Shown here one piece after another: positions 39,427-57,709 of a stretch of 64,000 nucleotides of DNA. This stretch comes from Steroidobacteraceae bacterium. Its GTDB lineage: Bacteria > Pseudomonadota > Gammaproteobacteria > Steroidobacterales > Steroidobacteraceae. Location: assembly GCA_035263105.1 (NCBI GenBank), contig DATFRO010000021.1:41254-105253 (forward strand), given 5' to 3'. How positions within the stretch are numbered: position 1 is the stretch's first letter; every line of letters begins with the position of its first letter. The translations under genes were made by a program, and so were the position numbers. Below the pieces are notes generated by a model. That model did not search any database. It was given only the letters and a program-made list of their open reading frames with translations, and had not been told where the DNA came from.

Positions 39427-39435
39427 GACCCTGAT

Positions 39436-41040
39436 ATGCGAAATCGCCTCATCGCCCTCTTCGTCATCGCAGCCCTGCTCGCTGCCTGCACCGGCATGCA
39501 GACCCAGGGCGGTGGCTCGTCCGGCGGATCTTCCGGCGGGTCCTCAGGCGGATCATCCGGATCCTCGGGTGGATCCTCAGGCGGTTCGTCGGGTTCCTCG
39601 GGTGGGTCTTCGGGCTCTTCGGGTGGCTCATCGGGCTCGTCAGGCGGGCAGACTGGGTCCTCCGGCGGATCGTCAGGCGGTCAGTCCGGCGGATCCTCGG
39701 GCGGCGATTCGGGTTCCTCAGGTTCTTCGGGTGGATCGGCTGGTACGGCGGGACCGCCGAGCTGGCCGAGCCCCAATGACTCCCCCAACGGCAGCTCGAA
39801 TGGCAGTGCCGGTGGGAGCGAGGGCGGCGGTAGTGATTCCCCGGGCGGCGGATCAGCAGGCACGGCAGGACCGCAGAGCTGGCCGAGCCCCAATGACTCG
39901 AGTGGCGGCAGCTCCGACGGCAGCGCTGGCGGCGGGTCCGAGGGCGGTGGATCTCAGTCCTCGACGACGTCCAGCAATGGCGGCGGCAGCAGTTCCGGCG
40001 CCGCGGGCGGCCAGGCGGGCAGTAACAGCTGGCCCTCTGGCGACAGCTCTTCGGGCGGCACCTCAGGGTCCGCGGGCGGCCAAGCCGGTGCTCAGGGCTC
40101 CGGTGGTCAGCAAGGCACGGACGGCCAGTCCGGAACGAGCGGTGGCGCCGGTGGCCCGTCAGGAAGCATGGGCGGTCAGCAAGGCGGCGGCGGCCAGCAA
40201 GGGAGCGGTGCGTCAGCGCAGTCCGCTGGAGCCGGCGGCCAGCAGGGCGCAGGTGCGGGTGGTGCCGGAGGCGCTGGTGGACAGCAGGGTGCCGGAGCCT
40301 CAGGAGCCGGAGGACAACAGGGCGCGGGCGCCGCAGGCGCCGGTGGCCAACAGGGTGCAGGTGCTGCGGGCGGTGGTCAGGCGGGCGTGAGAACCGCATC
40401 GGCCGGCGCCGGTGGCGCGATGAGTGGCGCCGGTAATGCCGGAGCGGGCGGCGTGGAGGGCCAGAACGGTGGTCCGGGACAGGGCCCCAACATGCCGGGC
40501 GGTGGCGGCGCACAGACCGATGCGGAACGCACGGCCGCTGCGAATGCGGCGATGGACGCCTCCCTCGGCGACTTCGACGAGAAGATCCGCAAGGAGCGCG
40601 AGCGGATTGCCAAGGAGCGCGATGCCGAGGCGGCGAACTCGCACGGCGCTTCCGGGGACTCGAGTGGCAGCAACGGCAGCTCGCCGGTCAGCGAAGGCGG
40701 CGGCGGCGCGGGGCGGCCCGGTGGCAATGACGGTGACCTGCGCTCCACGGGCGCAGGTTCTACGGGCGCCGGCGGCACGCCGGGCGCGGGTGGCGCATCC
40801 GGTTCTCCGGGCGGCACGAATTCTTCGGAGAAGGGCGGGCACGGTGGCGGTGGTGGCACCGGCGGCGGCGGCGGCAAAGGCGGCGGCGGCCCGAACTCCA
40901 CGCCCAAGAACATCCCGGATGGCAGTGACGATGACACGATCGCACGCCAGATTCGCGAAGCGGCGGAGAAGGAAACGGATCCGGAGCTCAGAGACAAGCT
41001 CTGGAAGGAATACATCGAGTACAAGAAGAACGCGCACTAG
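39436..41040 (+). CDS. lipoprotein with a Gly/Ser/Gln/Ala low-complexity region of about 330 aa and a charged helical C-terminal domain
   Basis: Lipobox LLAAC, GGSS-type repeats, two copies of a roughly 39-aa unit containing SAGTAGP(P/Q)SWPSPNDS, and GGQQGAGA repeats. The C-terminus is DDDTIARQIREAAEKETDPELRDKLWKEYIEYKKNAH. Confidence 0.7.
   Translation: MRNRLIALFVIAALLAACTGMQTQGGGSSGGSSGGSSGGSSGSSGGSSGGSSGSSGGSSGSSGGSSGSSGGQTGSSGGSSGGQSGGSSGGDSGSSGSSGGSAGTAGPPSWPSPNDSPNGSSNGSAGGSEGGGSDSPGGGSAGTAGPQSWPSPNDSSGGSSDGSAGGGSEGGGSQSSTTSSNGGGSSSGAAGGQAGSNSWPSGDSSSGGTSGSAGGQAGAQGSGGQQGTDGQSGTSGGAGGPSGSMGGQQGGGGQQGSGASAQSAGAGGQQGAGAGGAGGAGGQQGAGASGAGGQQGAGAAGAGGQQGAGAAGGGQAGVRTASAGAGGAMSGAGNAGAGGVEGQNGGPGQGPNMPGGGGAQTDAERTAAANAAMDASLGDFDEKIRKERERIAKERDAEAANSHGASGDSSGSNGSSPVSEGGGGAGRPGGNDGDLRSTGAGSTGAGGTPGAGGASGSPGGTNSSEKGGHGGGGGTGGGGGKGGGGPNSTPKNIPDGSDDDTIARQIREAAEKETDPELRDKLWKEYIEYKKNAH
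39508..40500 (+). repeat. coding low-complexity / tandem-repeat region (GGS, GGQQGAGA units), including a tandem duplication of about 117 nt at 39727-39960
   Basis: Read directly from the translation of 39436-41040. Synonymous codon variation between repeat units suggests the repeats are maintained at the protein level rather than arising from recent slippage. Confidence 0.8.
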
Positions 41041-41063
41041 TTGAGGTCGAGGATCAAGGAATC

Positions 41064-42359
41064 ATGACGGCTCTCAGGTTCACGCATTGCGGATTCGGCC
41101 GGGCGGCAGCCGTTTCCTTCGCACTGCTGCTCCTCGCCGCGCTGTCGGGATGCGTCGTCGAGGAAACGCGGCCCCTGCCCAAGGTGCACGCGGTGCAGGC
41201 GAAAGAGGAAATTCCGGCCGACGAGCTGCTCGATGTCGGCGTACGCATCTTCGATCCGGGCATTCCACCCGAGGTGGAGACCGACCCGACGGCCCAGGAG
41301 AAAGAGGGCATCTATCCCGACGTGCGCCGCGCCGAGGCGCGCTACATGTCGATGCTGCTCCGGAACACGCTCGAGACCACGGCGCAGTGGGGCGCAGTGC
41401 GCGTGATCCCTGCGACCGCCGAGTTCGTCGATGTGCTGGTCACCGGCAAGATCGTGAAGTCCACCGGCAAGGAGCTCGAGCTCCTCATCACCGTGCGCGA
41501 TTCGACCGGCCGCACCTGGTACACGGAAAAGAAATACGAACAGGAAGCGGACCTCGGCTCCTATCTGAGCGATGCGGCGCTCAAGGCCCGCGATCCGTTC
41601 CAGAACATCTACTCGACGATCGCGAACGACATGCTCGCGTTCCGCAACACGATCCCCGAGCCCGACCGGCGCATGGTTCGGCGCGTGACCGAGATGCGCT
41701 TCGCGCAGGACCTGGCCCCGAACGCCTATTCGGACTACGTGGTGCAGGACAAGGAAGGCCGCTACACGCTCAAGCGCCTGCCCGCGGATGGCGACCCGGT
41801 GTTCGAGCGCGTGCAGAAGGTCCGCGAGCGCGACGGCGCGCTGATCGACACCGTGAGCGACTACTACGGCAACTTCTACGATCACTTGAGTGAGCCGTAC
41901 GGCAACTGGCGCCGCTACAGCTATGACGAGATCAACAAGGAAGAGAAACTGAAGTCACAGGCGCGCACGCGCATGATCATGGGTGCCGCCGCCGTGCTCG
42001 GCAGCATCCTGGTGTCTTCGCAGTGCCCGGGCTCGGACTACAACTGCCGGCGCGTTGAGAGTGCGGTGCGCACGGCCGGCACCCTCGGCGGCATCGCCGG
42101 GATCATGAGCGGCCTGAAGAAGAACGCGGATGCAAAGATTCACACTGCGGCGATCAAGGAACTCGCGACCTCGTTCCAGACGGAAGTCGCGCCACAGGTG
42201 GTCGAAGTGGAAGGTCGCACCCTCAAGCTGACCGGCACGGCCGAGGACCAGTATCGCGAGTGGCGCGAGATGCTCAAGCAGATGTATATCGAGGAAACTG
42301 GCGGCGCGACCAACACGACGATCGCCGCGGGTAGCCCGACCACTACGACACCGCGTTGA
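41064..42359 (+). CDS. lipoprotein (431 aa) with a C-terminal Gly-rich hydrophobic segment
   Basis: Lipobox AALSGC, the later hydrophobic stretches MIMGAAAVLGSILV and GTLGGIAGIMSGL, and a Thr-rich tail. No family recognised. Confidence 0.65.
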   Translation: MTALRFTHCGFGRAAAVSFALLLLAALSGCVVEETRPLPKVHAVQAKEEIPADELLDVGVRIFDPGIPPEVETDPTAQEKEGIYPDVRRAEARYMSMLLRNTLETTAQWGAVRVIPATAEFVDVLVTGKIVKSTGKELELLITVRDSTGRTWYTEKKYEQEADLGSYLSDAALKARDPFQNIYSTIANDMLAFRNTIPEPDRRMVRRVTEMRFAQDLAPNAYSDYVVQDKEGRYTLKRLPADGDPVFERVQKVRERDGALIDTVSDYYGNFYDHLSEPYGNWRRYSYDEINKEEKLKSQARTRMIMGAAAVLGSILVSSQCPGSDYNCRRVESAVRTAGTLGGIAGIMSGLKKNADAKIHTAAIKELATSFQTEVAPQVVEVEGRTLKLTGTAEDQYREWREMLKQMYIEETGGATNTTIAAGSPTTTTPR

Positions 42360-42366
42360 GCTTCAT

Positions 42367-44685
42367 ATGCCGGGTTTGAACAGCGGGCAGCAACTGTCCG
42401 GGCGGTACAGTTTGCGCGAGCGACTCAGCGCCGGCCCGCTGGGTGAGACCTGGCGCGCACACGATTCCCAGCTCGATCGCGAAGTGGTCATCCGCCTGCT
42501 GCCGCAGGTGGCTCCCGCTGCGCTCGCGAGCGCGAACGCCGAGCTCGCGTCGGCCGAACAGCTCGATCCCGCCAGCATCGGCGCCGCGCGCAGCATCGAG
42601 CGCGATGGCGAGCAGCTCTACCTGGTTCGCGACTACGTTCCCGGCACCGATGTCTCCGCACTGCGCGCGGGCTCCTGGCGCGTCATCGCTTCCGCGGTGG
42701 CGGGAGCCGCGGACGCCCTCGCGAGGCTTCACCAGGCGGGACGCGTCCATCGCGACATCAAGCCCGGCAACATCGTGCAGCGACCGGATGGATCGGTGGC
42801 CCTCATCGATTTCGGCAACGCGGCGCTCGAGGGCGCGAACGCGCCGCACGGCGCGCTGTCGCGCTACAGCGCCAGCCCGCAACAGCTGGCCGGCGAGCCG
42901 GCGACGGCCGCCGACGATGCGTACGGCCTGGGTGCCGTGCTCTATGAGTTGTTGAGCGGCTACCCGCCGTTCTATCCGAATTTCAGCCGCGAGCGCGTGC
43001 TCTCCGAAGCGGTAGCGCCGCTCAAGCCGGCGCAGCCCGCGCCGCAGCCGCTCCTCGACCTGACCCTGCGGCTGCTGGCGAAGTCACCGGCCGAACGTCC
43101 CAGCGATCTCGCGCAGCTCGCACAGCAACTGCGTGAGCTGGTGAAGGGTGCAAACGACAGCGTCGCGAGCCCGAGCCGCGCGGCGGCCGGCTCGGATGCG
43201 GCGCCGGTCGTGACCATCGTGCGTCCGATCCTGCGTCCGGCCGCGCAAGGCGAGCGTACGAAGGCGGCGGCGGGTCCGCAGCGCCGCTGGTTGATCGGCG
43301 CCGCGTTCGCGCTGCTCGTGCTGCTCGCCCTCACGGTGCTGGTCGTGCTGCCGAGGTTCGTGCAGCGGCCGGCGGCCACGAGCACTGCACCCACCACCGC
43401 GAAGACTGCGCCCGCGCCCAAGCCTGCAGAGCCCGTCGAACCGGACCTGCGCACGCTCGCCGAGCAGATGCAGGAGGCCGAGCAGGTGCGCGACCAGTAC
43501 GACTCGCTCTACGAGTCGCTCGACAAGCGCGCCGTGAAAGAGTGGGCGCCGCAGCCCTTTGCCGCTGCGACCCACCACGGCGAAGAGGCGCGCAAGCACT
43601 ACTCCGTGCGCGAGTTCAAGGAATCAAAGGACGCGTACACCGCCGGCCTCGAAGAGCTGCGCAAGGCCGACGCGCTCGCCGAGCCGACGCTGCGCACGCA
43701 GATCGAAAAAGGCGAAGCCGCCCTCGTCGCCGGCCAGTCGGCCGCCGCACAAGCAGCCTTCACGCTCGCACTCAAGATCGATCCCGCGAACGCCGCTGCG
43801 ACCAGGGGCCTCAAGCGCGCGGGCACGCTCGACCAGGTGAACGCATTGCTGGCTAATGCGGCGAGCGCGGAGCGCACCGGCCAGCTGCCGCTCGCTGTGC
43901 AGCAGTTCGAAGAAGCCCTCAAGCTCGATCCCGACACGACAGCGGCGCGCGATGGCGCCGCACGCGTGCGTGCGCGCATCTCCGGCGACCAGTTCGCGGC
44001 CGCGATGTCGCAGGGGCTGGCACAACTTTCGGCGGGCAAGCTCGACGCGGCACGCGCGGCGTTCGAGCGTGCCAAGGGCATTCGCCCGAACGCACCGGAA
44101 GTGACCGATGCCTTGAACCAGGTCGCGCAGCAGCAGACCACGCTCACCATCGCGCAGCGTCGCGAGCAGGGAGAAAAGTTCGAGCACATCGAGCGCTGGG
44201 ATCTCGCCGTGGCCCAATACGATGCGGCCCTGAAGCTCGATCCGGGTCTCGAGTTCGCGCTCGCGGGCCGTGCCCGTGCCGCTCCGCGCGCGGAAATGGC
44301 CCAGCAGCTCGATGCGGTCATCAAGCAGCCGGAGCGGCTCCTCTCGGCCTCGGTGCGCGAGCAAACCAAGGCCTTGGTGGCGGCGGCGAACAAGGTCGAT
44401 CCGCAGGGCCCGCTGCTGCGCCAGCAGGTGACGACGGTGACCGCGAGCCTCGCCCAGTTCGAGGCGCCGGTGCGCATCGCGCTGGAATCGGATAACCAGA
44501 CGCAGGTGGTGATTCACCGCGTCGGTCAGCTCGGCATGTTCGACCACCGTGAGATCGACCTGCAGCCGGGCACTTACACGGTGATGGGAACCCGGGTCGG
44601 GTATCGCGATGTCCGCCGCGAGATTACAGTGATACCCGGGAAGGCACTCCCGCCCCTCATCGTGCGCTGCGAGGACCGCATTTGA
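42367..44685 (+). CDS. atypical Ser/Thr kinase-like protein: kinase domain - TM - TPR repeats - C-terminal PEGA-like domain
   Basis: HRDIKPGNIV and DFG are present. The Gly-loop is degenerate (SAGPLGE) and the VAIK lysine is replaced (VVIRLL). TM: WLIGAAFALLVLLALTVLVVL. TPR-like repeats follow, ending with PGTYTVMGTRVGYRDVRREITV. Confidence 0.8.
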   Translation: MPGLNSGQQLSGRYSLRERLSAGPLGETWRAHDSQLDREVVIRLLPQVAPAALASANAELASAEQLDPASIGAARSIERDGEQLYLVRDYVPGTDVSALRAGSWRVIASAVAGAADALARLHQAGRVHRDIKPGNIVQRPDGSVALIDFGNAALEGANAPHGALSRYSASPQQLAGEPATAADDAYGLGAVLYELLSGYPPFYPNFSRERVLSEAVAPLKPAQPAPQPLLDLTLRLLAKSPAERPSDLAQLAQQLRELVKGANDSVASPSRAAAGSDAAPVVTIVRPILRPAAQGERTKAAAGPQRRWLIGAAFALLVLLALTVLVVLPRFVQRPAATSTAPTTAKTAPAPKPAEPVEPDLRTLAEQMQEAEQVRDQYDSLYESLDKRAVKEWAPQPFAAATHHGEEARKHYSVREFKESKDAYTAGLEELRKADALAEPTLRTQIEKGEAALVAGQSAAAQAAFTLALKIDPANAAATRGLKRAGTLDQVNALLANAASAERTGQLPLAVQQFEEALKLDPDTTAARDGAARVRARISGDQFAAAMSQGLAQLSAGKLDAARAAFERAKGIRPNAPEVTDALNQVAQQQTTLTIAQRREQGEKFEHIERWDLAVAQYDAALKLDPGLEFALAGRARAAPRAEMAQQLDAVIKQPERLLSASVREQTKALVAAANKVDPQGPLLRQQVTTVTASLAQFEAPVRIALESDNQTQVVIHRVGQLGMFDHREIDLQPGTYTVMGTRVGYRDVRREITVIPGKALPPLIVRCEDRI

Positions 44686-47108
44686 GTCTTGCCCTGCGTC
44701 TGCGTGAGCCCCTCGGCGAACGCGCCATCTCGGCCAACGATCTGCCCCTTGCCCTCGGCGGCGAGGGCGCGAGTCTTGCCGTTCCCGGCGTGCCGCCAGG
44801 CGTGACCGCCGCCTACATCGGCTTCGACGAGCAGACCCCATACATCGAAGCCGTGGCGGACTCGGGCATCCCCGTGCTGCTCAACGGCCGCGCGCTGCGC
44901 GAACGCACGCCGCTCCTGCATGGCGATGTGATCCGCCTCGGCGATGCGCAGATCCTGTGCGCGGCGCGCGCCGGCACCGTCAACCTCGAGGTGATCCACC
45001 AGGAAGGCAACCAGACGCAGCCGCCGATCGTCGATCCGTCCGAGCAGGAGGAAGAGGTCGAGCTCGCGCCCGACTCGCAGGCGATCCGCCGCGTGGCGTT
45101 CAAGCCCGTGCTCGCGCCGCGCCAGCAGGTGCGGCGCAGTGCGACGCCCCAGCGCATCGGCCTCACCGCCGGCCTCACGGTGCTGTTCCTCGCGCTCTTC
45201 TACCTGGTGACGGCGAAGCCCCTGATCCTTGTCATCGACCCGCCCGACGCGAAGCTCGACTTCCGCGGCACGACGTTCGACTTCCGCGCCGGCGATCGCG
45301 TGCTCATGCGCCCGGGCAACTACAGCGTGGTCGCAACGCGCGCGGGCTACGAAACCGCGCAGCTCCCCGTGCACTTCAAGGGCGACAAGGGCGAGCAACT
45401 GAAGATCCGCCTCGCCAAGCTCCCCGGGCAGATCCACATCGACACGAATGGTGTGGCGGGCACGCTCAGCATCGACGGCAAGCCCGTCGGGCCCGTGCCG
45501 GGCGACTACCCGGTGACCGCCGGCAAACGGGAATTTCGCATCAGCGCGCCGCGCTACGAGGACTTCGCCGCGGCCGTGGAAGTGAAGGGTCTCGGCGAGA
45601 AACAGCGTGTCAACGCAAAGCTCAAGCCTGCGTTCAGTCCGGTGACGATCGAGTCCGAACCCGCGGGCGCGGCCGTCGCACTGGATGGCAAGGACCTCGG
45701 CGTGACGCCCCTGACAGTGCCGATCGATGCCGGCAGCTACTCGCTCACCCTCACGGCTGCGGGCTTTCGGCGCTGGGAGAGCTCGATCCAGGTGAAGGCG
45801 GACGCGCCGCAGAAGATCGGCCCGGTGAAGCTGGGCCTGCCGGATGGCGTTTTGCTGGTGCGCTCCACGCCCTCGCAGGCCGACGTCAATATCGGCGGCC
45901 GTTACCGCGGCCGCACGCCGCTCGACGTGAGTCTCGCGCCGGGTGTGCAGTACGAAGTGGTCGTGAGTCACTCGGGCTATGAAGACGGGCGGCGCGCCGT
46001 GCCCTCGAAGCCGGGAGAGCGGTCGGCGGTCGAGATGACCCTCAAGCCGATTCTCGGCGACGTCACGATTCGCGGCGATCCCGCGGATGCGCAGCTCTTC
46101 GTCGACGGCCAGCCGCGCGGGCCGGCCAACCAGACGATCGGGCTGCCCTCGACCGAGCTCTCGATCGAGATCCGTCGCGAGGGCTACCAGCCGTTTGCGA
46201 CCAAGGTCGTGCCGCAGCCGGGCCTCACGCGCGTGCTCGAATACCGCCTGCTCACGCCCGAGCAGGTGCGCCAGGCGCGCATTCCGCCGGTGATCCGCAC
46301 GCACACGGGCGGGCAGCTGCGCCGCATACCGACGGGCCATTACGTGATGGGCAGTTCACGCCGCGAGCCGGGCCGGCGCACCAACGAAGTCGAGCACGAA
46401 GTGGTGTTGCAGCGGCAGTTCTATGTGGGCGTATACGAAGTGACGAACGCCGAGTTCCGCCAATTCCAGCCCGAGCATTTGTCGGGCGTGGTGCGCGACC
46501 GCTCGCTCGACCAGGATGATCACCCGGTCGTCAACGTGACCTGGAATGATGCCGCGGCCTACTGCAATTGGCTGAGCGGGCAGGATGGACTCCCGCCTGC
46601 GTACACACAGCAGGGGGATACGTACGTGTTGGCGAAGCCGGTCACCACCGGATACCGCTTGCCGACCGAAGCGGAGTGGGAATGGGCCGCGCGCTACGAG
46701 AACGGACAGGCCACCCGGCGCTATCCCTGGGGCGCCTCGCTCCCGGTCCCGGAGAATTCAGGGAACTTTGCCGACAAACGGGCGCTCGCAGTCAACGCTA
46801 CCGCCGTAGAGAACTATGAGGACGGATTCGTGACCACGGCCCCGGTGGGCAAGTTTCCGGCAAGCCCGCTCGGGCTGTACGACATCGGCGGGAACGTGAC
46901 CGAATGGGTCCATGATTTCTACACTGTGTATCCGGAAGGGTCACCGATGACGACCGACCCGCTGGGACCCGACTCGGGGCCCCAGCACGTCGTGCGCGGT
47001 TCGAGCTGGCGCAGCGCCAATGTGGCGGAGCTGCGCCTGGCGTGGCGCGAACACGCGGACGGCAAGGCGCAACACATCGGCTTCCGGATTGCGAGGTACG
47101 CTGAATGA
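44682..47108 (+). CDS. FHA-like domain - TM - five PEGA-like domains - formylglycine-generating-enzyme (FGE/SUMF1) type domain
   Basis: N-terminus ...VLLNGRALRERTPLLHGDVIRLGDAQI (divergent FHA). TM: IGLTAGLTVLFLALFYLV. Repeated units end in GYETA, RYEDF, GFRRW, GYEDG and GYQPF. The C-terminus has HPVVNVTWNDAAAYCNWLS ... YRLPTEAEWEWAAR ... GNVTEWVHDFY ... RGSSW ... GFRIAR. Confidence 0.8.
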   Translation: MSLALRLREPLGERAISANDLPLALGGEGASLAVPGVPPGVTAAYIGFDEQTPYIEAVADSGIPVLLNGRALRERTPLLHGDVIRLGDAQILCAARAGTVNLEVIHQEGNQTQPPIVDPSEQEEEVELAPDSQAIRRVAFKPVLAPRQQVRRSATPQRIGLTAGLTVLFLALFYLVTAKPLILVIDPPDAKLDFRGTTFDFRAGDRVLMRPGNYSVVATRAGYETAQLPVHFKGDKGEQLKIRLAKLPGQIHIDTNGVAGTLSIDGKPVGPVPGDYPVTAGKREFRISAPRYEDFAAAVEVKGLGEKQRVNAKLKPAFSPVTIESEPAGAAVALDGKDLGVTPLTVPIDAGSYSLTLTAAGFRRWESSIQVKADAPQKIGPVKLGLPDGVLLVRSTPSQADVNIGGRYRGRTPLDVSLAPGVQYEVVVSHSGYEDGRRAVPSKPGERSAVEMTLKPILGDVTIRGDPADAQLFVDGQPRGPANQTIGLPSTELSIEIRREGYQPFATKVVPQPGLTRVLEYRLLTPEQVRQARIPPVIRTHTGGQLRRIPTGHYVMGSSRREPGRRTNEVEHEVVLQRQFYVGVYEVTNAEFRQFQPEHLSGVVRDRSLDQDDHPVVNVTWNDAAAYCNWLSGQDGLPPAYTQQGDTYVLAKPVTTGYRLPTEAEWEWAARYENGQATRRYPWGASLPVPENSGNFADKRALAVNATAVENYEDGFVTTAPVGKFPASPLGLYDIGGNVTEWVHDFYTVYPEGSPMTTDPLGPDSGPQHVVRGSSWRSANVAELRLAWREHADGKAQHIGFRIARYAE

Positions 47109-47521
47109 ACACGCCCATCAGAGACTCCACACGAACACCGCGCCGTTACCCGGCGGCGTGGATCACGCTCGCGCTCCTGGCGCTCGCACCGGTTGGTGCG
47201 CTGGTGTCACAGGATGCGCCCAAGCCCGCGACGCCGGAGGAAGGAGCACCGGCTGCGAAGGAAGCACCGCCGGCCGCAAAGAAGACGCCGGCGTCAAAGC
47301 CCGCGGCGGACTCCACCAAGCCCGCTGCTGATTCGACCAAGGCCTCCACTGCGAAAGCGCCTGCCGCGGGTGCTGACAAAGGCGAGGCCGGCAAAGCGCC
47401 AGCCAACGGCGAGCAGGCCGACAAGGGCGACGACATCGACAAGTCGCAGGCTCCTACCATCTTCGTTCCAACCCAGAAAACATCGGCAGACAACAGTGCA
47501 ACATTCCCGATCGACATCTGA
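47105..47521 (+). CDS. membrane-anchored or secreted Ala/Pro/Lys-rich protein (TolA/TonB-spacer-like)
   Basis: N-terminal hydrophobic helix AAWITLALLALAPVGALV, then KPATPEEGAPAAKEAPPAAKKTPASKPAADSTKPAADSTK.... Third-position GC supports this frame over the overlapping Arg-rich frame. Confidence 0.65.
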   Translation: MNTPIRDSTRTPRRYPAAWITLALLALAPVGALVSQDAPKPATPEEGAPAAKEAPPAAKKTPASKPAADSTKPAADSTKASTAKAPAAGADKGEAGKAPANGEQADKGDDIDKSQAPTIFVPTQKTSADNSATFPIDI

Positions 47522-48353
47522 AGCCTCCGCGCCAGCCCCGGCTGCGCGCGCGACGCCACGCAGCTCTCAGCAGAGCGAGTTCCTCTTCAGCACCTTCGCG
47601 TTGATCATCACCGCGATCCTGGTGCATGCGCTCTACGTGGTGCACATCCGCCCGCGCGGCGACGCCATCATGGCCGAGCAGTTCGCGAAGATGCGCGTCC
47701 AGGCCAACTACGTGCCGGAGCGCTCGATCTACATCGTGGTGCACGAGTACGAGCCCGAGGTGTGCATCATCCTGATGATCTGGTCGCTGATCCTGCTGGG
47801 TCATCGCATGGTCGACAATCGCGCACAGCGCAAGCTCCTGGCATCGGGACTGCTCAACATCCCGCCGGGCATGCGCATCCTGCCGAAGGACACGCGCGAG
47901 TACGCGCGACAGATGGAAGCGCTCGATCCCAAGACCCAGGAGCTGCTCCTGCCGCGCGCGATCGTGGCATCGCTCGAGCGCTTCGGCTCGACCGACAACA
48001 TCCATGACGCCGCCGAGGCGGGCCGCGCGGTGTGCGAGTCCGAGGCCGAGCGTCTCGACTCCGAGCTCTCGATGGTGCGCTACACGGTGTGGGCGATTCC
48101 CGCCATCGGGTTCGTCGGCACGGTGCGCGGTATCGGCGCGGCGCTCCAGCAGGCGCACCAGGCGGTGTCCGGGAACATCAGTGGCGTCACCGAAGCGCTC
48201 GGCATCACCTTCAACGCCACGTTCACCGCGCTCACCTCGAGCATCATCGTGATGTTCTTCCTGCACCAGCTGCAGCTCGCACAGGAACGCATGGTGCTCG
48301 ATACCTCGAGCTACCTGGACCAGCATCTGCTGCGGCACATGCGCGCGTCCTGA
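47496..48353 (+). CDS. MotA/TolQ/ExbB-family proton-channel protein (3-TM ExbB/TolQ topology)
   Basis: TM1 FLFSTFALIITAILVHALYVV, a long cytoplasmic loop, then IPAIGFVGTVRGIGAAL ... GVTEALGITFNATFTALTSSIIVMFFLH, which parallels P-IGL-GTV-GI ... GIAEAL ... of ExbB/TolQ. No in-frame ATG precedes TM1, so the GTG at 47496 is proposed as the start (uncertain). Confidence 0.75.
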   Translation: MQHSRSTSEASAPAPAARATPRSSQQSEFLFSTFALIITAILVHALYVVHIRPRGDAIMAEQFAKMRVQANYVPERSIYIVVHEYEPEVCIILMIWSLILLGHRMVDNRAQRKLLASGLLNIPPGMRILPKDTREYARQMEALDPKTQELLLPRAIVASLERFGSTDNIHDAAEAGRAVCESEAERLDSELSMVRYTVWAIPAIGFVGTVRGIGAALQQAHQAVSGNISGVTEALGITFNATFTALTSSIIVMFFLHQLQLAQERMVLDTSSYLDQHLLRHMRAS

Positions 48354-48379
48354 AGCCGAACCAGCCGAGCACGATCACC

Positions 48380-49750
48380 GTGAGCAGGGGTGCCATCGAG
48401 ATCAACGACGCCGGCGTGCTCGTCGCCGTCGATGGTGTCGTGCGGCAATCGAGTCCCGGCTACGCGTTGCTCGATCGCGAGCCCACCGTGGTGGGCGAAC
48501 CGGCGCTGCACGCCGCGCGCATCGAGCCGCTCAACATCAACAATCGCTTCTGGAACGAGCTCGACGAGCGGCCGCTCCTGGTGCGCGCCGCCGCCGGACG
48601 CTCGCATGCGGATCTCGCGTACCTGCACCTCGCGCACATCTGGCGCGACCTTGCCGAGCCGCCGCAGGCCGTGCGCTTCGCGGTGCCGGCGACGTTGCGC
48701 CCGCAACAGCTGGCGCTCCTCCTCGGGATCGCGCGGGAAGCGCGTGTGCCGGTGGCCGGGTTCGTCGACACGGCCGTCGCGCTGGCCAGCACTGCGCCCG
48801 ATAGCGGCCGGCTGCTCTACGTCGATGTCCATTTGCACCACACGGTGATCACCGCAGTCGCCGTCGGCGAGCGCGCACGCCGTGAGCGCTCCGAGCTCGC
48901 GCGCAATGCGGGCTGGCTCGCATTCACCGACACGTGGTTGAGCATGGTCGGCCGCGAGTTCGTGGCGCGCACCCGCTTCGATCCGCTGCATCGCGCCGCC
49001 GTCGAGCAGCAGTTGTTCGACGCGTTGCCCGGCTGGCTCGAGCAGCTGCAGACGAGCGATGCGATCGAGATCGAGCTGCCGTTCGAGGGCGAGACGCATT
49101 CGGTGCGGCTCACGCGCGAGCAATTCGCGCTCGAGGCCGACGGTCTCTACACGGAGCTCCTGATGCGCGTGCATCGGCTGCGCACGCCGGGCCACGCGAC
49201 CACCATCGTGCTCGGCGACCGCGCCGCACTGTTGCCCGGGCTCGCGCAACGCTTTGCCGAATTCAACGACTGCAACGTGGTGCGCAGCTCCCCGGGCGCC
49301 GCCGTGATTGCCGCCGCCGCGCTCGACGGCGAGGCGACGGGCGATGACACCGTGCAACTGCTATGCGCGACGCCGCGTCTCGATGCGGGGATCACGCGCC
49401 TGCCGTGGAAGAGCCTGCAGGATGCGCGCCCGGCGGATGTCGTGGCCGCGCCTTCGCACCTTTTGTATCGGGGGCAGGCCGTGGCACTCGGTCCCGAACC
49501 GTTGCACATCGGTCTCGCCCCGCCGCGCGATCGCGGCCCGGCGCTCAGCGTGGTCGGCGCCGCGGCCGGTGTGTCACGCCTGCATTGTTCGGTGTTGCGC
49601 CTGCCGAGCGGCGCCGTGGTCGTCGATCACAGCCGCTACGGCACCTGGCTCAACGACGAGCGGGTCTTCGGCCGCGCGACGCTGCGCGCCGGCGATCGCC
49701 TGCGGCTCGGCCGCCCGGGCGTGACACTCGAGCTGATCACTTCGGGCTGA
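48380..49750 (+). CDS. degenerate Hsp70/actin-like (ASKHA) domain protein with C-terminal FHA domain
   Basis: The ordered motif analogues are AIEINDAG (phosphate 1), FAVPA, GFVDTAVALAS (compare IINEPTAAA), LLYVDVHLHHTVITAV (compare DLGGGTFDV), IVLGDRAALLPGL (compare LVGGSTRIP) and PGAAVIAAAAL. The FHA is GVSRLHCSV ... DHSRYGTWLNDERV ... LRAGDRLRLG. A GTG start is proposed (uncertain). Confidence 0.65.
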   Translation: MSRGAIEINDAGVLVAVDGVVRQSSPGYALLDREPTVVGEPALHAARIEPLNINNRFWNELDERPLLVRAAAGRSHADLAYLHLAHIWRDLAEPPQAVRFAVPATLRPQQLALLLGIAREARVPVAGFVDTAVALASTAPDSGRLLYVDVHLHHTVITAVAVGERARRERSELARNAGWLAFTDTWLSMVGREFVARTRFDPLHRAAVEQQLFDALPGWLEQLQTSDAIEIELPFEGETHSVRLTREQFALEADGLYTELLMRVHRLRTPGHATTIVLGDRAALLPGLAQRFAEFNDCNVVRSSPGAAVIAAAALDGEATGDDTVQLLCATPRLDAGITRLPWKSLQDARPADVVAAPSHLLYRGQAVALGPEPLHIGLAPPRDRGPALSVVGAAAGVSRLHCSVLRLPSGAVVVDHSRYGTWLNDERVFGRATLRAGDRLRLGRPGVTLELITSG

Positions 49751-49753
49751 GCC

Positions 49754-50854
49754 ATGCCGCGCAATCGCCGCCACACCGAAGTGTTCACGATGTCGTTCCT
49801 CGACTGCATCTGCTGCGGTTTCGGCGCGGTCGTGCTCGTGTACGTGATCATCAGCGCGACTGCGGGCGTCACCCGCGTGCACCAGGACGACGACCTCAAG
49901 GGCGAGGTCAACAAGCTCGAGGAGCAGGTGCTCGAGGGCTACAAGAACCTGGTCGTGTTGCGCAACACGACGCAGGTGACCACCAGCCAGTCGAGCAAGG
50001 CCTCCGGGCGCATCGCGCAGATCCTCGAGGAGCTGGAGAAGACGCGCGTCGAGCTCTCGACCTACACCGGCGACACGCTCTCGAAGCAGGAGCACATCAA
50101 CCAGCTCAAGTCCGACATCCGCGCGCTGGAAGAGGGCAACCGGCGCCTGGAAGCGGGCTCGAAGGACGTCGCCGAAGCCGGGCAGAACGTGCGCGCCTTC
50201 AAAGGCACCGGCAACCGGCAATACCTCACCGGCATCACGGTCACCGGCAAGCACGTGCTCATCCTCATCGACATGTCGGCGAGCATGCTCGATGAGACGC
50301 TGGTCAACATCCTGCGCATGCGCAACCTCCCGGACATCCAGAAGATGCTCGCGCCGAAGTGGCAGCGCGCGGTCTCGACCGTCGACTGGCTGACGACGCA
50401 GATTCCGCCCGACAGCGAATTCCAGGTGTACGCGTTCAACACCGAAGCGCACTCGATGATCGAGGGGAGCGACGGCAAGTGGCTCAAGGCGACCGACCCG
50501 CGTCCGCTCAACGCCGCGGTGGCAAAGCTCAGGCACACGCCGCCGCACGACGGCACGAGTCTCATCAATGCGTTCAACGCCGCAAAGACGCTCGATCCAC
50601 TGCCCGACCAGATCCTGCTGATCACCGATGGGCTCCCGACGCAGGGCGCGACCGCGCCCGCGATCCGCAAGGCGGTGGAAGTCGAGCAGCGCGCGAAGCT
50701 CTTCGATCAGTCGCTGGGGGCGCTGCCGCCGCACGTGCCCGTGAGCACCATCCTGATGCCGATGGAAGGCGATCTGCCGGCGCCCGCGCGCTTCTGGCGC
50801 CTGGCGCGTGAGACCGGCGGTGTCTTCATGATGCCGGCGAAGGACTGGCCATGA
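49754..50854 (+). CDS. ExbD/TolR-like N-terminal TM (with Asp) - coiled coil - vWA domain protein, paralog 1
   Basis: N-terminus MPRNRRHTEVFTMSFLDCICCGFGAVVLVYVI (compare TolR EINIVPLLDVLLVLLLIF), about 110 aa of coiled coil, and a vWA with MIDAS DMSAS ... GTS ... ITDG. Confidence 0.75.
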   Translation: MPRNRRHTEVFTMSFLDCICCGFGAVVLVYVIISATAGVTRVHQDDDLKGEVNKLEEQVLEGYKNLVVLRNTTQVTTSQSSKASGRIAQILEELEKTRVELSTYTGDTLSKQEHINQLKSDIRALEEGNRRLEAGSKDVAEAGQNVRAFKGTGNRQYLTGITVTGKHVLILIDMSASMLDETLVNILRMRNLPDIQKMLAPKWQRAVSTVDWLTTQIPPDSEFQVYAFNTEAHSMIEGSDGKWLKATDPRPLNAAVAKLRHTPPHDGTSLINAFNAAKTLDPLPDQILLITDGLPTQGATAPAIRKAVEVEQRAKLFDQSLGALPPHVPVSTILMPMEGDLPAPARFWRLARETGGVFMMPAKDWP

Positions 50855-51834
50855 AGCTCAAGCGCCACACCACCGAAGTCTTCAGCATGTCGTTCCTCGA
50901 CTGCATCTGCTGCGGCTTCGGCGCGATGATCCTGATCCTGGTGCTCACCGAGACCGGCCAGCCGATCGTGCTGGAGAAAGTGCGCACCGACATGCACGGC
51001 CAGGTGGCGAAGTTGCAAGCCGAGCTCTACGAGATCCGCGGCGAGACCGACATCCTCAACCGCGACCTGAAGGGCCGCATCGAGCAGCTGTCACTCGAGA
51101 AGAGCAAGCTCGCGAAACTGCAGGGCGACCTGAGCACCGTCAAGGGCCAGTACCAGAGCAGCCAGAAGGAATCGGAGATCGAGAATACCGAGGAGGGACA
51201 GCTCGTATCCGCGTACCAAAAGCTGACCGACGAGATGGAACGGCTCCTCAAGGCCGGCTACCACCGCCCGAAGAATTCCGCCATCGGCGGCATCCCCGTC
51301 GACAGTGAGTACATAATCTTCGTGGTCGACACGTCGGGCAGCATGCAAGAGAATCACTGGGACCAGGCGCGCAAGATGATGGAGGAAATCCTCGACATCT
51401 ACCCGCACGTCAAGGGCATCCAGGTGATGGACGACGAAGGCGCTTACATGTTCGATGGCTATCGCGGCCAGTGGATCGCGGACACGCCCGCGCGGCGCAA
51501 GGCGATCATGGACCGCTTCAAGACCTGGACCTCGTTCAGCAACTCGAACCCGGTCGAAGGGTTGCTTGCGGCCGTGCGCACGTTCTGGGCCCCGGACAAG
51601 AAAGTGAGCGTCTATTACTTCGGCGACGACTTCCCCGGCGAGTCGATCCAGGCCGTGCTCGACCAGATCGATCGCGCCAATCACAGCGAGAGCGGCGAGC
51701 GCCGCGTGCGCATTCACGCCATCGGCTTCCCGATGCCGCCGCGCGCGCCGCAATTCGGCAACACGCGCTACAGCGCGCTGATGCGCCAGGTGTGCGAGAG
51801 GAACGGCGGCACCTTCGTCGGCATGGAAAGCTGA
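50851..51834 (+). CDS. ExbD/TolR-like N-terminal TM (with Asp) - coiled coil - vWA domain protein, paralog 2
   Basis: N-terminus MKLKRHTTEVFSMSFLDCICCGFGAMILILVL is nearly identical to paralog 1. A coiled coil follows, then a vWA with MIDAS DTSGS. ATGA overlap with paralog 1. Confidence 0.75.
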   Translation: MKLKRHTTEVFSMSFLDCICCGFGAMILILVLTETGQPIVLEKVRTDMHGQVAKLQAELYEIRGETDILNRDLKGRIEQLSLEKSKLAKLQGDLSTVKGQYQSSQKESEIENTEEGQLVSAYQKLTDEMERLLKAGYHRPKNSAIGGIPVDSEYIIFVVDTSGSMQENHWDQARKMMEEILDIYPHVKGIQVMDDEGAYMFDGYRGQWIADTPARRKAIMDRFKTWTSFSNSNPVEGLLAAVRTFWAPDKKVSVYYFGDDFPGESIQAVLDQIDRANHSESGERRVRIHAIGFPMPPRAPQFGNTRYSALMRQVCERNGGTFVGMES

Positions 51835-52874
51835 TGCACACAAAGAAAGCGTTGGGAGGACTCGCGCTCCTCCTGCTGGTCGCCGCGGGATTCAGCGGCT
51901 GCGGTGGCGTGAACATCGCGACCGAGTCGAACATGCCCACGCCGCTCGTCGACCAGATACCGGTCACGGTCGGGATCTACTACAGCGACGATTTCGCGAA
52001 GGCCACGCACGCCGAGGAACGCTGGGGCACGGACTGGAAGGTCGATCTCGGCCCTTACCACGTGCACATGGCGGACAAGCTCTTTGCCGCGGAATTCCGC
52101 GAGACCGTGGCGGTCACCGACATCAAGTCCTTGCCGCAGGACCCACCGTACAAGGCCATCCTCGAGCCGCGCATCGAGCAGTTCTCCTTCATCACGCCGC
52201 GCGACACCGGCGCGAAGTACTTTGCGGTCACGATCCGCTATCGGCTGAACGTCTATGCGCCGAACGGCACGCTGGCCGATTCGCTGACCTTCACCGGTTA
52301 CGGCAGCAACGGTGCGGGCAGCGGCATGACGAGCACCAAGCCGATGATCGCGGCGACCAAGGCGGCGATGCGCGATGCCGCGGCCAAGTTCCTGGTGCAG
52401 TTCCCCGAGCAGGATGTCGCGAAGCGCCTCATCGCCGGCGAGCCGTTGGTCGAGGCGAAGCAGCAGGTCGCGCTCGGCGGCGCTGCCGGGGCTGGCGCGG
52501 CGGCGGGTGCGAGCGACAGCGTGAAAGTGGATACCGTGCCCATCGTCGATCCGACGCCGGAAACCGCGGCGCCAGGGGCGGTCCCCGGACAACCTGCGCC
52601 GGCGCGAGCGCCGGCGGCGACTACCACGCCGGCCGCAGGCGGCCAGGCGCCGAGCACGGACGCGCCCAAGCCGCCGGCAGAGTCGCAACCGACCACGGAT
52701 CAACCGTCGTCGCCAACGCCGTCCGGCAGTGAAACACCCCCGACGCGGACAACGGGCGGCGAGACACCGACACCGCCATCGGCCGGAGACGCGAAGACGC
52801 CGCCGGGCGCAGACAACAAGACGCCGGCGTCCGGCGGCGACTCACCGCCGCCTTCGACGCAGCCGCCGAATTAG
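51834..52874 (+). CDS. lipoprotein with Pro/Thr/Ala-rich C-terminal tail, last gene of the operon
   Basis: MHTKKALGGLALLLLVAAGFSGC lipobox, a globular part of about 200 aa, then a tail of about 120 aa rich in P/T/A/G. TGATG overlap with the preceding gene. Confidence 0.7.
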   Translation: MHTKKALGGLALLLLVAAGFSGCGGVNIATESNMPTPLVDQIPVTVGIYYSDDFAKATHAEERWGTDWKVDLGPYHVHMADKLFAAEFRETVAVTDIKSLPQDPPYKAILEPRIEQFSFITPRDTGAKYFAVTIRYRLNVYAPNGTLADSLTFTGYGSNGAGSGMTSTKPMIAATKAAMRDAAAKFLVQFPEQDVAKRLIAGEPLVEAKQQVALGGAAGAGAAAGASDSVKVDTVPIVDPTPETAAPGAVPGQPAPARAPAATTTPAAGGQAPSTDAPKPPAESQPTTDQPSSPTPSGSETPPTRTTGGETPTPPSAGDAKTPPGADNKTPASGGDSPPPSTQPPN

Positions 52875-52905
52875 TTCGCTCGCGTTGCTTCAGATCCGCG
52901 GCAGA

Positions 52906-54378
52906 TCAGCTGCGGACGTAAATCGTTTCCTTGTAGCGCACACCGACGGTCTCGACCGGCTCGCCGTTGACGAAGCGCGGCCGATAGCGCGCGCGCTTGA
53001 TGGCGCTCAGCACCGAGTTGCCGGCGGTATCGCTCGAGTCGTGGTCGCCGAGCTTGGCATCGCGCACGCGGCCCTCGGGCGTGACGGTGAACTCGATCTC
53101 GGCGTAGTGCGGCGTGTACTTGTCGGCTGCCTCATGCGGAGGCCGGGTGATCGATGGCGCGCGATAGATGACCGGGTACGGACTGTCGAGCGCCGCGGTT
53201 CCAGGCGCTCCCGGCTCGCTCAACGCCTTCCACGCGTCGCGGTAGGTGTTCATCGCCTGGCGCCACTGGCCCGCGGTGATGCGCCAGTCGCCGAGCTCGA
53301 TCAGCGTCTGCCCGCGCCCCGCGTTGTCCTCGCCCGGGTGCGCATCGTAGATCTTCATCGCGGCTTCGAGCGCGTTCTCGCCATCCGGGTTGAGCACGCT
53401 CGCCGTGCTCACGCCGTTGGCGCTCGCGGGAGTGGACACCGGCCCCGCGACGCCGCCGATGTCACCGGCATTCTCCGGAGAGCCCTCCGGACGCTCCGGC
53501 CCATAGAGGAATTCCATCCGGTAGGTGCGCGCGATGCCGCGCAGCGGACTGATCATCCGCATGTCGGTCTCGCCGCCTTTGCGGGCGATGTCGAGTGCGC
53601 GCGCATGGATCTGCCGCGCGGTCGTGAAGCGGCCTTGCGATTCGAGCCAGCTCGCGGTGCGCTCGAGCGCGGGCAGGATCCGCGGATCGTCCCGGCCGTA
53701 GGTCGTCTCGGCGAGCCGCAGCGCGTACTGTTGCTCGCGTTGCGCATCGTCGTACTGGTTGAGCGCGGAGTAGCCGGCGATCAGCGGGTCGAGGAGCTCG
53801 AGCTGCGCCGGGTTGAAGAGGCCGTCGATCTTGCGGCTCACGTCCACGGCGCGCTTCAACGCGTCGGTGGAGGCGGCATAGTCGCCGCTCGCCGCGTACG
53901 TCATGCCGAGCCCGAAGAGCGGCTGGATGATCTCGTGCGAGAAGCCGCCCTGGTTGGACTCGACGATCTTCACCGCGCGCTTGTAACTGGTTTCCGCGCC
54001 GCTGTAGTCCTTGACGCGCAGTTGCGTGGTGCCGAGATTGATCAGCGGGTTGACGAGTTGCGGGCCGTTCGGCCCGAACTCCTGCTCGGTCTGCTCGATC
54101 AGCTGGCGCGCGGGCACCAGCGCTTCGGCGAAATGCCGGCTGTCGAATTGCTGGCGGAACGCCTTATAGGTCCCGGCCCGATTCGAGCTGGCATCGGGTG
54201 CGGCCGGTGTCTCCTCAGCCGGCGTGGGCGGTGCTTTCGCGTCGGTCTTCTTGTTTTTGTCGGGCTTGGCGGAAGGTGTTGTGGTCGCGGGCGGCGTCGC
54301 TTGCAACGTCGTCGCCTGCGCGAGCGCCACGGCGCCTGAGGCCATCGCGATGAGGATGATGGATCTGAAGGGGATCAC
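52906..54378 (-). CDS. periplasmic TPR-repeat protein with C-terminal TonB_C domain
   Basis: A GTG start at 54378 with a GGAGGA Shine-Dalgarno gives the signal peptide (M)IPFRSIILIAMASGAVALAQA. TPR-like helical repeats follow. The C-terminus is HYAEIEFTVTPEGRVRDAKL ... SVLSAIKRARYRPRFVNGEPVE (TonB_C pattern). Confidence 0.7.
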   Translation of the reverse strand: MIPFRSIILIAMASGAVALAQATTLQATPPATTTPSAKPDKNKKTDAKAPPTPAEETPAAPDASSNRAGTYKAFRQQFDSRHFAEALVPARQLIEQTEQEFGPNGPQLVNPLINLGTTQLRVKDYSGAETSYKRAVKIVESNQGGFSHEIIQPLFGLGMTYAASGDYAASTDALKRAVDVSRKIDGLFNPAQLELLDPLIAGYSALNQYDDAQREQQYALRLAETTYGRDDPRILPALERTASWLESQGRFTTARQIHARALDIARKGGETDMRMISPLRGIARTYRMEFLYGPERPEGSPENAGDIGGVAGPVSTPASANGVSTASVLNPDGENALEAAMKIYDAHPGEDNAGRGQTLIELGDWRITAGQWRQAMNTYRDAWKALSEPGAPGTAALDSPYPVIYRAPSITRPPHEAADKYTPHYAEIEFTVTPEGRVRDAKLGDHDSSDTAGNSVLSAIKRARYRPRFVNGEPVETVGVRYKETIYVRS

Positions 54379-54529
54379 GCGCCGTCCTCCACCGGAACCG
54401 ACCGGGCCCGCGCACGCCATGAAGAACACGCGTCAGTATACCCAGCCTCGGGGACGGGTCGGCACGGCACGGAGATGAACTTGGACATTCAGGTGCAGGA
54501 CGAGTTCGTCCCGGCCAGGGCCGGCTCGG

Positions 54530-55027
54530 TCACCCCGGGTTGTCGAGGTTATTCGGTGCCGGGCCGCGCAGGCGCTGCGCCAGGCGGACGAGGAGCGGCG
54601 AGAGCACCAGGTACAGCAGGTAGATCATCAGCGGACCGAGCACGGCCCAGCCGATCACCGCGTGCAGGATGGCATCGCGCAGGACGCTGAAGGTGTGCGC
54701 GCCGCCGCTGCCGAACACATCGAGGCTGGCGCGCATCGACAACGGCTCGCTGTGCGCATGAACGATGTGCTCGCCGAGGCGCACGAACGGGATGATCAAC
54801 AGCAGTTGCAGCGGCGTCATGGCGAAGTGCACCGTCTGGATGGCGATGAGGTTGAGCCGCCAGAACAGGGCGGCCACCGTGCACAACACCATCGTCGTGC
54901 CCAGCACTGGGAAGATCCCGATGCCGATGCCGAGCGCGAGACTGAGCGCGATCTTGGCCGGCGTGATGCCCTGCATGAGCAGGATCACGAGCGGCGCGAT
55001 CACCCGCCGGTGGATGAATTCCTTCAT
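54530..55027 (-). CDS. DUF2062 membrane protein
   Basis: MKEFIHRRVIAPLVILLMQGITPAKIALSLALGIGIGIFPVLGTT..., the typical DUF2062 N-terminus. The internal Met start is preferred. Confidence 0.75.
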   Translation of the reverse strand: MKEFIHRRVIAPLVILLMQGITPAKIALSLALGIGIGIFPVLGTTMVLCTVAALFWRLNLIAIQTVHFAMTPLQLLLIIPFVRLGEHIVHAHSEPLSMRASLDVFGSGGAHTFSVLRDAILHAVIGWAVLGPLMIYLLYLVLSPLLVRLAQRLRGPAPNNLDNPG

Positions 55028-55103
55028 GGAGTGAGAGACCCGCCCCGAGGCCGCGGAAACGCTGGAGTGCGGGCATTTTCCACTACAATCGGCACCAACA
55101 ACA

Positions 55104-55808: not shown

Positions 55809-55865
55809 CGCTCTGCGCCCAGCGCTCGCGGGTCGGTAAGGCTCAGGGATTCTCGCAGGCGCGCG

Positions 55866-57074: not shown

Positions 57075-57253
57075 CGGGCGCCGGGACCCGCGTAGCGAGG
57101 GGAACGATCACAGCGCGCACACTAACCAACCTCGGCTCACGATGAAAGCGCGCGCGCCTGACGCAAGGCGGCGACAGCGGAACGTCGCGGCGAATTCGTG
57201 CATGCTATGTCCCAACGCGATTGTCCGCGCGCGCCGCGGGGAGATGCATCGAC

Positions 57254-57703: not shown

Positions 57704-57709
57704 GGATCC

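Follow-up and report, generated by a model that had tools for sequence, protein, structure and literature searches.

A TolQ/ExbB-family channel encoded with paired membrane-anchored vWA proteins in a Steroidobacteraceae genome: a putative proton-driven envelope motor

Ion-driven motors of 5:2 architecture (MotAB, ExbBD, TolQR, GldLM and Zorya) power very different envelope processes. A further class, the 'TPH-vWA' proteins with TolQ-like channels, has been predicted by computation alone (Mol Biol Evol 2025;42:msaf138, PMC12204202; section 8, Fig. 4c-d). These are described there as transmembrane (TM)-tethered vWA proteins that occur mainly as heterologous pairs, in close linkage to homologues of tolQ and with tolR and exbD absent. 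Their TolR/ExbD-like 'trans-pore helix' (TPH) carries a conserved Asp and no SHLS/His motif, and their function is given as unknown. In AlphaFold 3 (AF3) 5:2 models from the same section, whose exemplar is from Idiomarina loihiensis, the Asp pair sits inside a Thr ring. Here we analyze a locus of this kind in a 64,000-nucleotide stretch of the genome of a Steroidobacteraceae bacterium (assembly GCA_035263105.1, contig DATFRO010000021.1; hereafter the window). Its core module comprises a small secreted protein, a TolQ/ExbB-family channel, an Hsp70-like protein and two vWA proteins (vWA1 and vWA2), and forms genes five to nine of a ten-gene cluster.

The module shows every feature by which section 8 of PMC12204202 defines the TPH-vWA class, a likeness drawn from the described architecture and not from the sequence of the exemplar. 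No Idiomarina protein is among the named homologues; a homologue search seeded from a marine relative, together with the names of cluster members, gave only metagenome-assembled genomes (MAGs) and one Halioxenophilus isolate. The AF3 model in that section, built for a family of the same architecture, would lend independent support to reading the module as a motor. Our literature searches found no published description of the wider conserved cluster. An initial annotation, made from the letters of the window, had read the module as a Ton/Tol-type stator whose ExbD/TolR-type subunit is duplicated and carries a vWA domain. The peptides that it quoted all lie where it placed them and the observation behind it is confirmed; its central interpretation is a reasonable hypothesis with an independent precedent.

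The channel and the vWA pair

The protein encoded at 47496-48353 is a TolQ/ExbB-type family member by Pfam, by profile search of the PDB and by fold, in agreement with the initial annotation. Residues 169-268 match the Pfam family MotA_ExbB (PF01618) with an E-value of 7e-11 and 42.4 bits (cut-off 22.9). Most homologues of the channel are 265-268 amino acids (aa) long, and a profile of 30 orthologues found TolQ as its sole match among PDB sequences (E = 1.3e-3). The profile alignment places T209 on TolQ T145 and T242 on TolQ T178 (T148 and T181 in ExbB), and both threonines are invariant in 65 channel sequences. An AlphaFold 2 (AF2) model of the channel (predicted local distance difference test, pLDDT, 84.8) was compared with known structures in Foldseek: matches 1-44 are all TolQ or ExbB chains (best target TM-score 0.72, root-mean-square deviation 3.8 Å), and MotA and PomA rank far below them. 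The channel belongs to a distinct subfamily and is not a TolQ orthologue, because it scores just 21 bits against the NCBIfam TolQ equivalog TIGR02796, which has a cut-off of 221. Its GVTEAL glutamate (E233) had been taken for a conserved residue of the family. It is present in the window, but the position varies among homologues (E in 27, Q in 13, A in 9, R in 8 and D in 3) and is out of register with TolQ E173 (ExbB E176), which faces a Val/Ile column in the profile alignment.

The two vWA proteins share 28% identity by BLASTP (E = 6e-22) and their N-terminal TM regions are near-identical. As first annotated, each has a basic N-terminus, a single TM helix, a helix of ~100 residues and a vWA domain with a metal ion-dependent adhesion site (MIDAS); Pfam returns VWA_2/VWA matches for both. 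The AF2 model of vWA1 (pLDDT 88.9) runs as one continuous helix over residues 10-136, then through a disordered linker into a vWA fold (residues 167-366), which Foldseek confirmed. The MIDAS of vWA1 is intact (D173, S175, S177 and D292), and the D-x-S-x-S motif and the downstream Asp are kept in both paralogue families. Around the TM helix, the mean net charge changes from +2.75 on its N-terminal side to -0.5 immediately beyond it. Applied to these flanking charges, the positive-inside rule predicts an N-in/C-out topology with the vWA domain in the periplasm. vWA1 and vWA2 are obligately paired and translationally coupled: the vWA2 start overlaps the vWA1 stop in ATGA, and the two genes adjoin in essentially all of 81 related loci.

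No segment of the vWA protein is more strongly conserved than the TM core: mean column identity there is 0.82, against 0.55 for the vWA domain and 0.30 for the long helix. Homologues of vWA1 number more than 7970, and clustering at 50% identity gives 1652 representatives. The N-terminal motif F-S-L/M-S-F-L-D-x-I/M-x-C-G-F-G-A varies hardly at all among 120 close vWA1 homologues, 150 cluster representatives (50% identity) down to 31% identity, and 118 marine homologues, and the same holds for both paralogues in 80 genome loci. A 75-sequence alignment of vWA1 shows no variation at F15, D17, G24 or L28. Essentially every full-length homologue of vWA1 that was examined carries the Asp, even where identity is as low as 31%. 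At least 597 GTDB species genomes proved on scanning to have a relative, and across the best 80 loci both vWA1 and vWA2 have the Asp wherever the motif is readable (nine vWA1 and two vWA2 open reading frames, ORFs, are unreadable). The conservation expected for the TM Asp and the CICCGFG motif was thus borne out in part: the Asp is near-invariant and C21 and G-F-G-A are kept, but the CICC cysteines otherwise are not. Because residues conserved at ≥90% are spread over all faces of the helix, it fits a putative protein-enclosed element and not a lipid-exposed anchor. The helix contains no His or SHLS motor-binding motif.

The locus offers the channel no other partner of the ExbD/TolR type. A phmmer search of all ORFs found no ExbD, TolR or MotB gene in the window or in the 81 related loci, each taken with 10 kb on both sides, and its sole match was one marginal OmpA-like protein. 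The vWA proteins themselves have neither an ExbD/TolR fold nor an OmpA-like domain, and carry the long helix and the vWA domain instead. They do have the layout of a plug subunit: a single N-terminal TM helix, a cytoplasmic N-terminus as predicted from charge, and an invariant Asp near the cytoplasmic end. Their genes lie near the channel gene, one gene apart, in 55 of the 63 syntenic loci, defined as those containing both genes that flank the channel position. These 55 loci (87%) are found in Gammaproteobacteria, Desulfobacterota, Acidobacteriota, Myxococcota and Planctomycetota. By context, the vWA helix is plausibly an ExbD/TolR-type helix, because without it a channel whose Thr ring is intact would have no central dimer.

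A proposed proton-driven motor and its rivals

We consider it fairly probable that the core is a proton-driven motor of the 5:2 type, of the same kind as TolQR, ExbBD and MotAB, with the vWA heterodimer as its axle. The TolQ/ExbB-like protein would form a pentameric channel, as its family membership suggests, and the N-terminal helices of vWA1 and vWA2 would form a heterodimeric axle inside the pentamer. The invariant Asp, placed beside the invariant Thr ring, would be the proton-binding site and stand in for that of TolR/ExbD. Proton flow would drive rotation or a piston movement of the axle, and a periplasmic helix pair of ~100 residues (~15 nm) would relay this movement to two MIDAS-bearing vWA heads. 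The heads may bind an acidic ligand carried by a partner in the periplasm or outer membrane whose gene lies in the same operon; the ...FPxDI-COOH tail of the small secreted protein, the PEGA/FGE-fold protein (FGE, formylglycine-generating enzyme) and the lipoproteins are candidates for this role. From the cytoplasm, the Hsp70-like/FHA protein would regulate the machine, with a Ser/Thr kinase added in the lineage of the window. Its output could be tethering, secretion or surface movement.

Several observations weigh against this proposal. By sequence, the vWA helix would not be classed as an ExbD/TolR helix. Pfam at E ≤ 10 returned no match, ExbD and MotB included, for six vWA N-terminal peptides, a check that the initial annotation had itself proposed; a PDB search with the TM profile at E ≤ 10 found no ExbD, TolR or MotB; and hhalign of the helix against Escherichia coli TolR (a sequence that exactly matches PDB 9ddm), ExbD and MotB gave non-significant probabilities of 1-2%. 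The residue-for-residue alignment first claimed with TolR and ExbD thus holds as a pattern, with hhalign placing D17 on TolR D23, ExbD D25 and MotB D32, but not as significant homology by any of the three methods. Moreover, eight of the 63 syntenic loci lack a channel gene (L001, L014, L020, L030, L031, L036, L044 and L056). These have no MotA, TolQ or ExbB gene within 10 kb either side, as searched with the family hidden Markov model and E. coli TolQ and ExbB, and the gap between their FGE and Hsp70-like/FHA genes holds the small gene only. They keep the full Asp motif in both vWA paralogues; the helix is equally constrained where no channel gene is present in cis. The channel-less loci are not monophyletic, falling in at least four separate places on a neighbor-joining tree. 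Either the channel gene has been relocated in these genomes or the helix has a role independent of the channel. In a low-GC marine lineage (L082 and L083), vWA2 has Ala in place of the Asp (L083 11074-12060; helix M-A-F-L-A-V-I-T-C-G-F-G-S). vWA1 keeps its Asp there, and the heterodimer would have a single one. Lastly, the gene of a cytoplasmic protein separates the channel gene from the vWA genes, unlike the arrangement in tolQ-tolR or exbB-exbD.

These points bear on an alternative in which the vWA pair is a membrane-anchored periplasmic adhesion or scaffold heterodimer. The TM motif would then pack the two helices together, or against other single-pass partners such as the kinase/TPR and PEGA/FGE proteins, and the channel would be a dispensable accessory that makes lateral contact or energizes something else. 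We regard this as unlikely, though part of the data favors it: the motif persists in the eight channel-less loci, one lineage tolerates the Asp→Ala change in vWA2, the helix has no sequence homology to ExbD/TolR, and at least two further single-pass membrane proteins are products of the cluster. Likewise, C21-x-x-G24 and G22-x-x-A25 are typical helix-packing motifs (small-xxx-small plus a polar Asp). However, a scaffold of this kind would leave a channel with both pore threonines invariant without a central dimer, no TolR/ExbD partner being encoded in the 81 loci, and it would need to explain why the channel accompanies the pair in 87% of loci across phyla. The conservation of the helix on all its faces also exceeds what a dimer interface needs, and the depth of the Asp matches that in TolR, ExbD and MotB, if by a non-significant hhalign alignment.

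A signaling or conflict (defense-type) system, with the MotA/ExbB-like protein as a membrane-depolarizing effector as in Zorya or in vWA ternary systems, seems to us very improbable. vWA, Ser/Thr kinase, FHA and FGE-fold domains co-occur here, such components recur in the conflict systems of PMC7159879, and the kinase matches PADLOC kinase models (e.g. PD-T4-6, E = 3e-37). Yet only this generic kinase domain is meaningful among the PADLOC results, the matches of vWA1 and vWA2 being weak and of coiled-coil type (E = 0.002-0.06). Neither MoxR nor any other NTPase is encoded, marine relatives that keep the core lack the kinase and FHA domains, and the vWA domains are predicted to be periplasmic. 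Gene order is also rigid across phyla, beside housekeeping genes and outside any mobile-element context. We give still less credence to a variant of the BatA/BatB aerotolerance-type operon. Two TM-anchored vWA paralogues and a TPR protein do recall such operons, and the BatB/Bat-like vWA structures 3ibs and 4jdu are among the Foldseek matches, but better matches are to generic vWA domains and the combination of TM motif and long helix is peculiar to the vWA family of the window. We rejected this reading because neither the window cluster nor its annotated relatives contain a MoxR ATPase or DUF58 gene. A type VI secretion system (T6SS) phospho-relay was likewise rejected; there are no T6SS genes.

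Beyond the proton-driven core motor that we favor, the whole cluster is possibly, and more tentatively, one uncharacterized proton-driven trans-envelope machine made up of the lipoproteins, the TPR/kinase, PEGA/FGE and tail proteins, the channel, the Hsp70-like protein and the vWA axle. Here the MIDAS would grip the tail of the small protein or an outer-membrane partner in a PorKLMN-like logic, gated by Ser/Thr phosphorylation in some lineages. If the motor reading is true, the direct fusion of an axle with a metal-dependent adhesion domain would give proton-motive force another route to the periplasm or outer membrane. The family is large: its homologues run to thousands, and it is carried by more than 597 GTDB species genomes from several phyla, abundant soil and marine Gammaproteobacteria among them. 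To the published prediction, this locus adds a conserved gene set, a candidate MIDAS ligand and a regulatory layer of Hsp70-like/FHA protein and kinase. The channel-less clusters and the putative single-Asp heterodimer are two natural experiments able to test the model.

The conserved gene cluster

The window has a GC content of ~67%; the nearest relative, a MAG from Steroidobacteraceae, shares 91% identity with it in vWA1. Ten closely packed genes lie on the forward strand at 39436-52874, in the order of Table 1, and several of their stop and start codons overlap (ATGA, TGATG). The overlaps between successive genes span 1-4 bases, at 44682-44685 (the TTG start at 44682-44684 within TTGA), 47105-47108 and 50851-50854 (both ATGA) and 51834 (TGATG); they suggest translational coupling along the operon, the vWA1-vWA2 pair included. 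In all frames of 39338-58000 there are also many long alternative-frame or antisense ORFs, e.g. 44574-46340 on the reverse strand and 47193-48353, an extension of the channel frame. These have no homologues and are what a GC content of 67% leads one to expect, not genes.

Table 1. Genes of the cluster and its convergent neighbor (positions in the window)
Gene product	Position (strand)	Size	Description	Basis or context
Gly/Ser-rich lipoprotein	39436..41040 (+)		Low complexity; lipobox LAAC; conserved C-terminal helix ...ETDPELRDKLWKEYIEYKK	Sequence, synteny
Lipoprotein	41064..42359 (+)	431 aa	Lipobox LSGC; no known domain (Pfam, NCBIfam)	Syntenic in most loci
Ser/Thr protein kinase	42367..44685 (+)		TM helix and periplasmic TPR repeats	Pkinase E = 6e-22; TPR matches
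PEGA/FGE membrane protein	44682..47108 (+)	808 aa	Unassigned N-terminal region in the cytoplasm, single TM helix, four PEGA repeats in the periplasm, C-terminal FGE-sulfatase-fold domain	
Small secreted protein	47105..47521 (+)	138 aa	Putative Sec signal peptide, disordered middle, invariant C-terminal tail	
TolQ/ExbB-family channel	47496..48353 (+)	285 aa from GTG at 47496	Three TM helices	Pfam PF01618
Hsp70-like nucleotide-binding domain (NBD) protein	48380..49750 (+), start codon uncertain	456 aa	C-terminal FHA domain	Between channel gene and vWA1
vWA1	49754..50854 (+)	366 aa	Basic N-tail, TM helix, long helix, disordered linker, predicted periplasmic vWA domain	
vWA2	50851..51834 (+)	327 aa	Same TM motif, long helix, vWA domain with D-T-S-G-S	vWA1 paralogue
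Lipoprotein	51834..52874 (+)		Lipobox FSGC; Pro/Thr/Ala-rich C-terminal tail	Start overlaps vWA2 stop (TGATG)
Convergent neighbor	52906..54429 (-)		Secreted TPR protein with C-terminal TonB_C domain	Lineage-specific

The best 80 loci of the GTDB scan come from Steroidobacteraceae, Woeseiaceae, Desulfobacterales, Vicinamibacteria, Myxococcales and Isosphaeraceae. The order lipoproteins, kinase/TPR, PEGA-FGE, small protein, channel, Hsp70-like/FHA, vWA1 and vWA2 is kept throughout, and the cluster adjoins housekeeping genes with no mobile-element context. Marine Gammaproteobacteria (~35% identity) keep the core; their kinase/TPR protein consists of the TM-TPR part alone, with no kinase domain, and Pfam detects FHA in neither the Hsp70-like nor the PEGA/FGE proteins of these relatives. 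The phospho-signaling layer is therefore probably an add-on.

The small protein encoded immediately upstream of the channel had been likened to a TolA/TonB-type anchor. Its composition and hydrophobic N-terminus are as then described, followed by an Ala/Pro/Lys/Glu-rich disordered middle of very variable length, but its orthologues carry Sec-type signal peptides that end in A-x-A followed by Q, E or D (e.g. VGA-QD, ATA-QE and AHA-QD). The hydrophobic segment thus looks like a cleavable signal peptide and not a TM anchor. The protein has no Pfam or NCBIfam match and no TonB_C domain or TolA domain III, and its orthologues have no SHLS motif. The signal peptide, together with the lack of SHLS and of a C-terminal domain, led us to discard the TonB/TolA-like identity. 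The protein ends instead in an invariant tail of ~20 residues, ...F-x-P-T/S-E/Q-K-x-x-A-D-x-x-V/A-S/T-F-P-I/V-D-I-COOH. A positional orthologue with the same tail is found in nearly every locus, channel-less and marine ones included (e.g. L001 8308-8616, L083 7730-7936 and L084 7643-7864). Because the tail is acidic and strictly C-terminal, we propose it as a candidate ligand for the vWA MIDAS sites.

The gene between those of the channel and vWA1 keeps its syntenic place in every locus. Its product matches Pfam FHA (E = 1e-7), and its family profile matches, among PDB sequences, the NBDs of SSB1, DnaK and BiP (E = 1.5e-7 to 1e-3) and FHA domains (E = 2e-8). It has no TM segment and would therefore act at the cytoplasmic face. 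The glycine loop of the phosphate-2 motif looks degenerate in the Hsp70-like NBD (L-H-L-D-L-x-L-H compared with D-L-G-G-G-T), which leaves its ATPase activity uncertain.

The PEGA/FGE protein, likewise syntenic, matches Pfam FGE-sulfatase (E = 4e-51) and PEGA (E = 1.5e-47). The best NCBIfam match of its FGE domain is GldK/PorK (TIGR03525; E = 2e-35), at 122.7 bits against a cut-off of 350. We did not adopt the GldK/PorK identity, given this sub-threshold score and an internal TM helix in a protein that is not a lipoprotein. In the C-terminal R-G-S-S-W... segment of the FGE domain there is no cysteine, and by reading the domain appears to lack the two catalytic cysteines of genuine formylglycine-generating enzymes. 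At the N-terminus of the protein, ~100 residues look FHA-like by eye; neither Pfam nor the PDB supported this assignment and it was dropped.

At the upstream end, the C-terminal segment of the Gly/Ser-rich lipoprotein recurs upstream in most loci, marine L083 included. Its ~35 residues, D-D-D-T-I-A-R-Q-I-R-E-A-A-E-K-E-T-D-P-E-L-R-D-K-L-W-K-E-Y-I-E-Y-K-K, are kept even in marine loci of 35% identity. The lipoprotein at the downstream end is syntenic in Steroidobacteraceae-like loci, and unrelated small lipoproteins occupy the same place in marine loci. Beyond it, tblastn placed the convergent neighbor directly downstream in 41 gammaproteobacterial loci, channel-less ones included, and not in other phyla; a 42nd match (L052) lies elsewhere. 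Its TonB_C and TPR families were recorded by Pfam for the L001 orthologue. This gene is a possible, uncertain member of the system.

Comparison with known motors

The passages of PMC12204202 on the TPH-vWA class mention neither PEGA/FGE, tail, Hsp70-like/FHA and kinase/TPR proteins nor lipoproteins; channel-less loci and single-Asp heterodimers are likewise unmentioned in them. Compared with TolQ-TolR-TolA and ExbB-ExbD-TonB, the channel is of the same family in sequence and fold and keeps both pore threonines, and the vWA partner is similarly a single-pass protein whose N-tail is basic and whose helix has an Asp some six residues in from its cytoplasmic end. The vWA helix, however, is not detectably homologous to that of TolR or ExbD, and in the periplasm a long helix and a vWA domain take the place of an ExbD/TolR-type fold. 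Two paralogues would pair to form the partner as a heterodimer, a third subunit of the TonB/TolA type is absent, and the equivalent of TolQ E173 is not conserved in the channel. The 5:2 architecture expected here and an Asp in the plug helix are shared with MotA-MotB and PomA-PomB. Unlike these, the locus encodes no OmpA-like peptidoglycan-binding domain and has no flagellar genes nearby, and MotA and PomA rank low in the Foldseek comparison.

The GldK-GldL-GldM-GldN (PorKLMN) proteins of the type IX secretion system (T9SS) offer a further parallel, a pentameric motor around two single-pass helices whose long periplasmic parts reach an outer assembly. As in the T9SS, the putative motor of the window is encoded beside a gene for an FGE-sulfatase-fold protein, for which GldK is the best NCBIfam match. 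The GldK score of 123 bits compares with a cut-off of 350, however, and the window contains no GldM or GldN homologue. GldL itself is outside the MotA_ExbB family, and the FGE-fold protein of the window has an inner-membrane anchor in place of the lipid of a lipoprotein.

The gliding motor of Myxococcus, AglR-AglQ-AglS, belongs to a system in which a vWA adhesin, CglB, is likewise employed. Its AglQ and AglS subunits are genuine homologues of TolR, and CglB is a separate outer-membrane lipoprotein that is not fused to the axle. With one TolQ-like channel and two different TolR-like subunits, this motor provides a precedent for a heteromeric axle.

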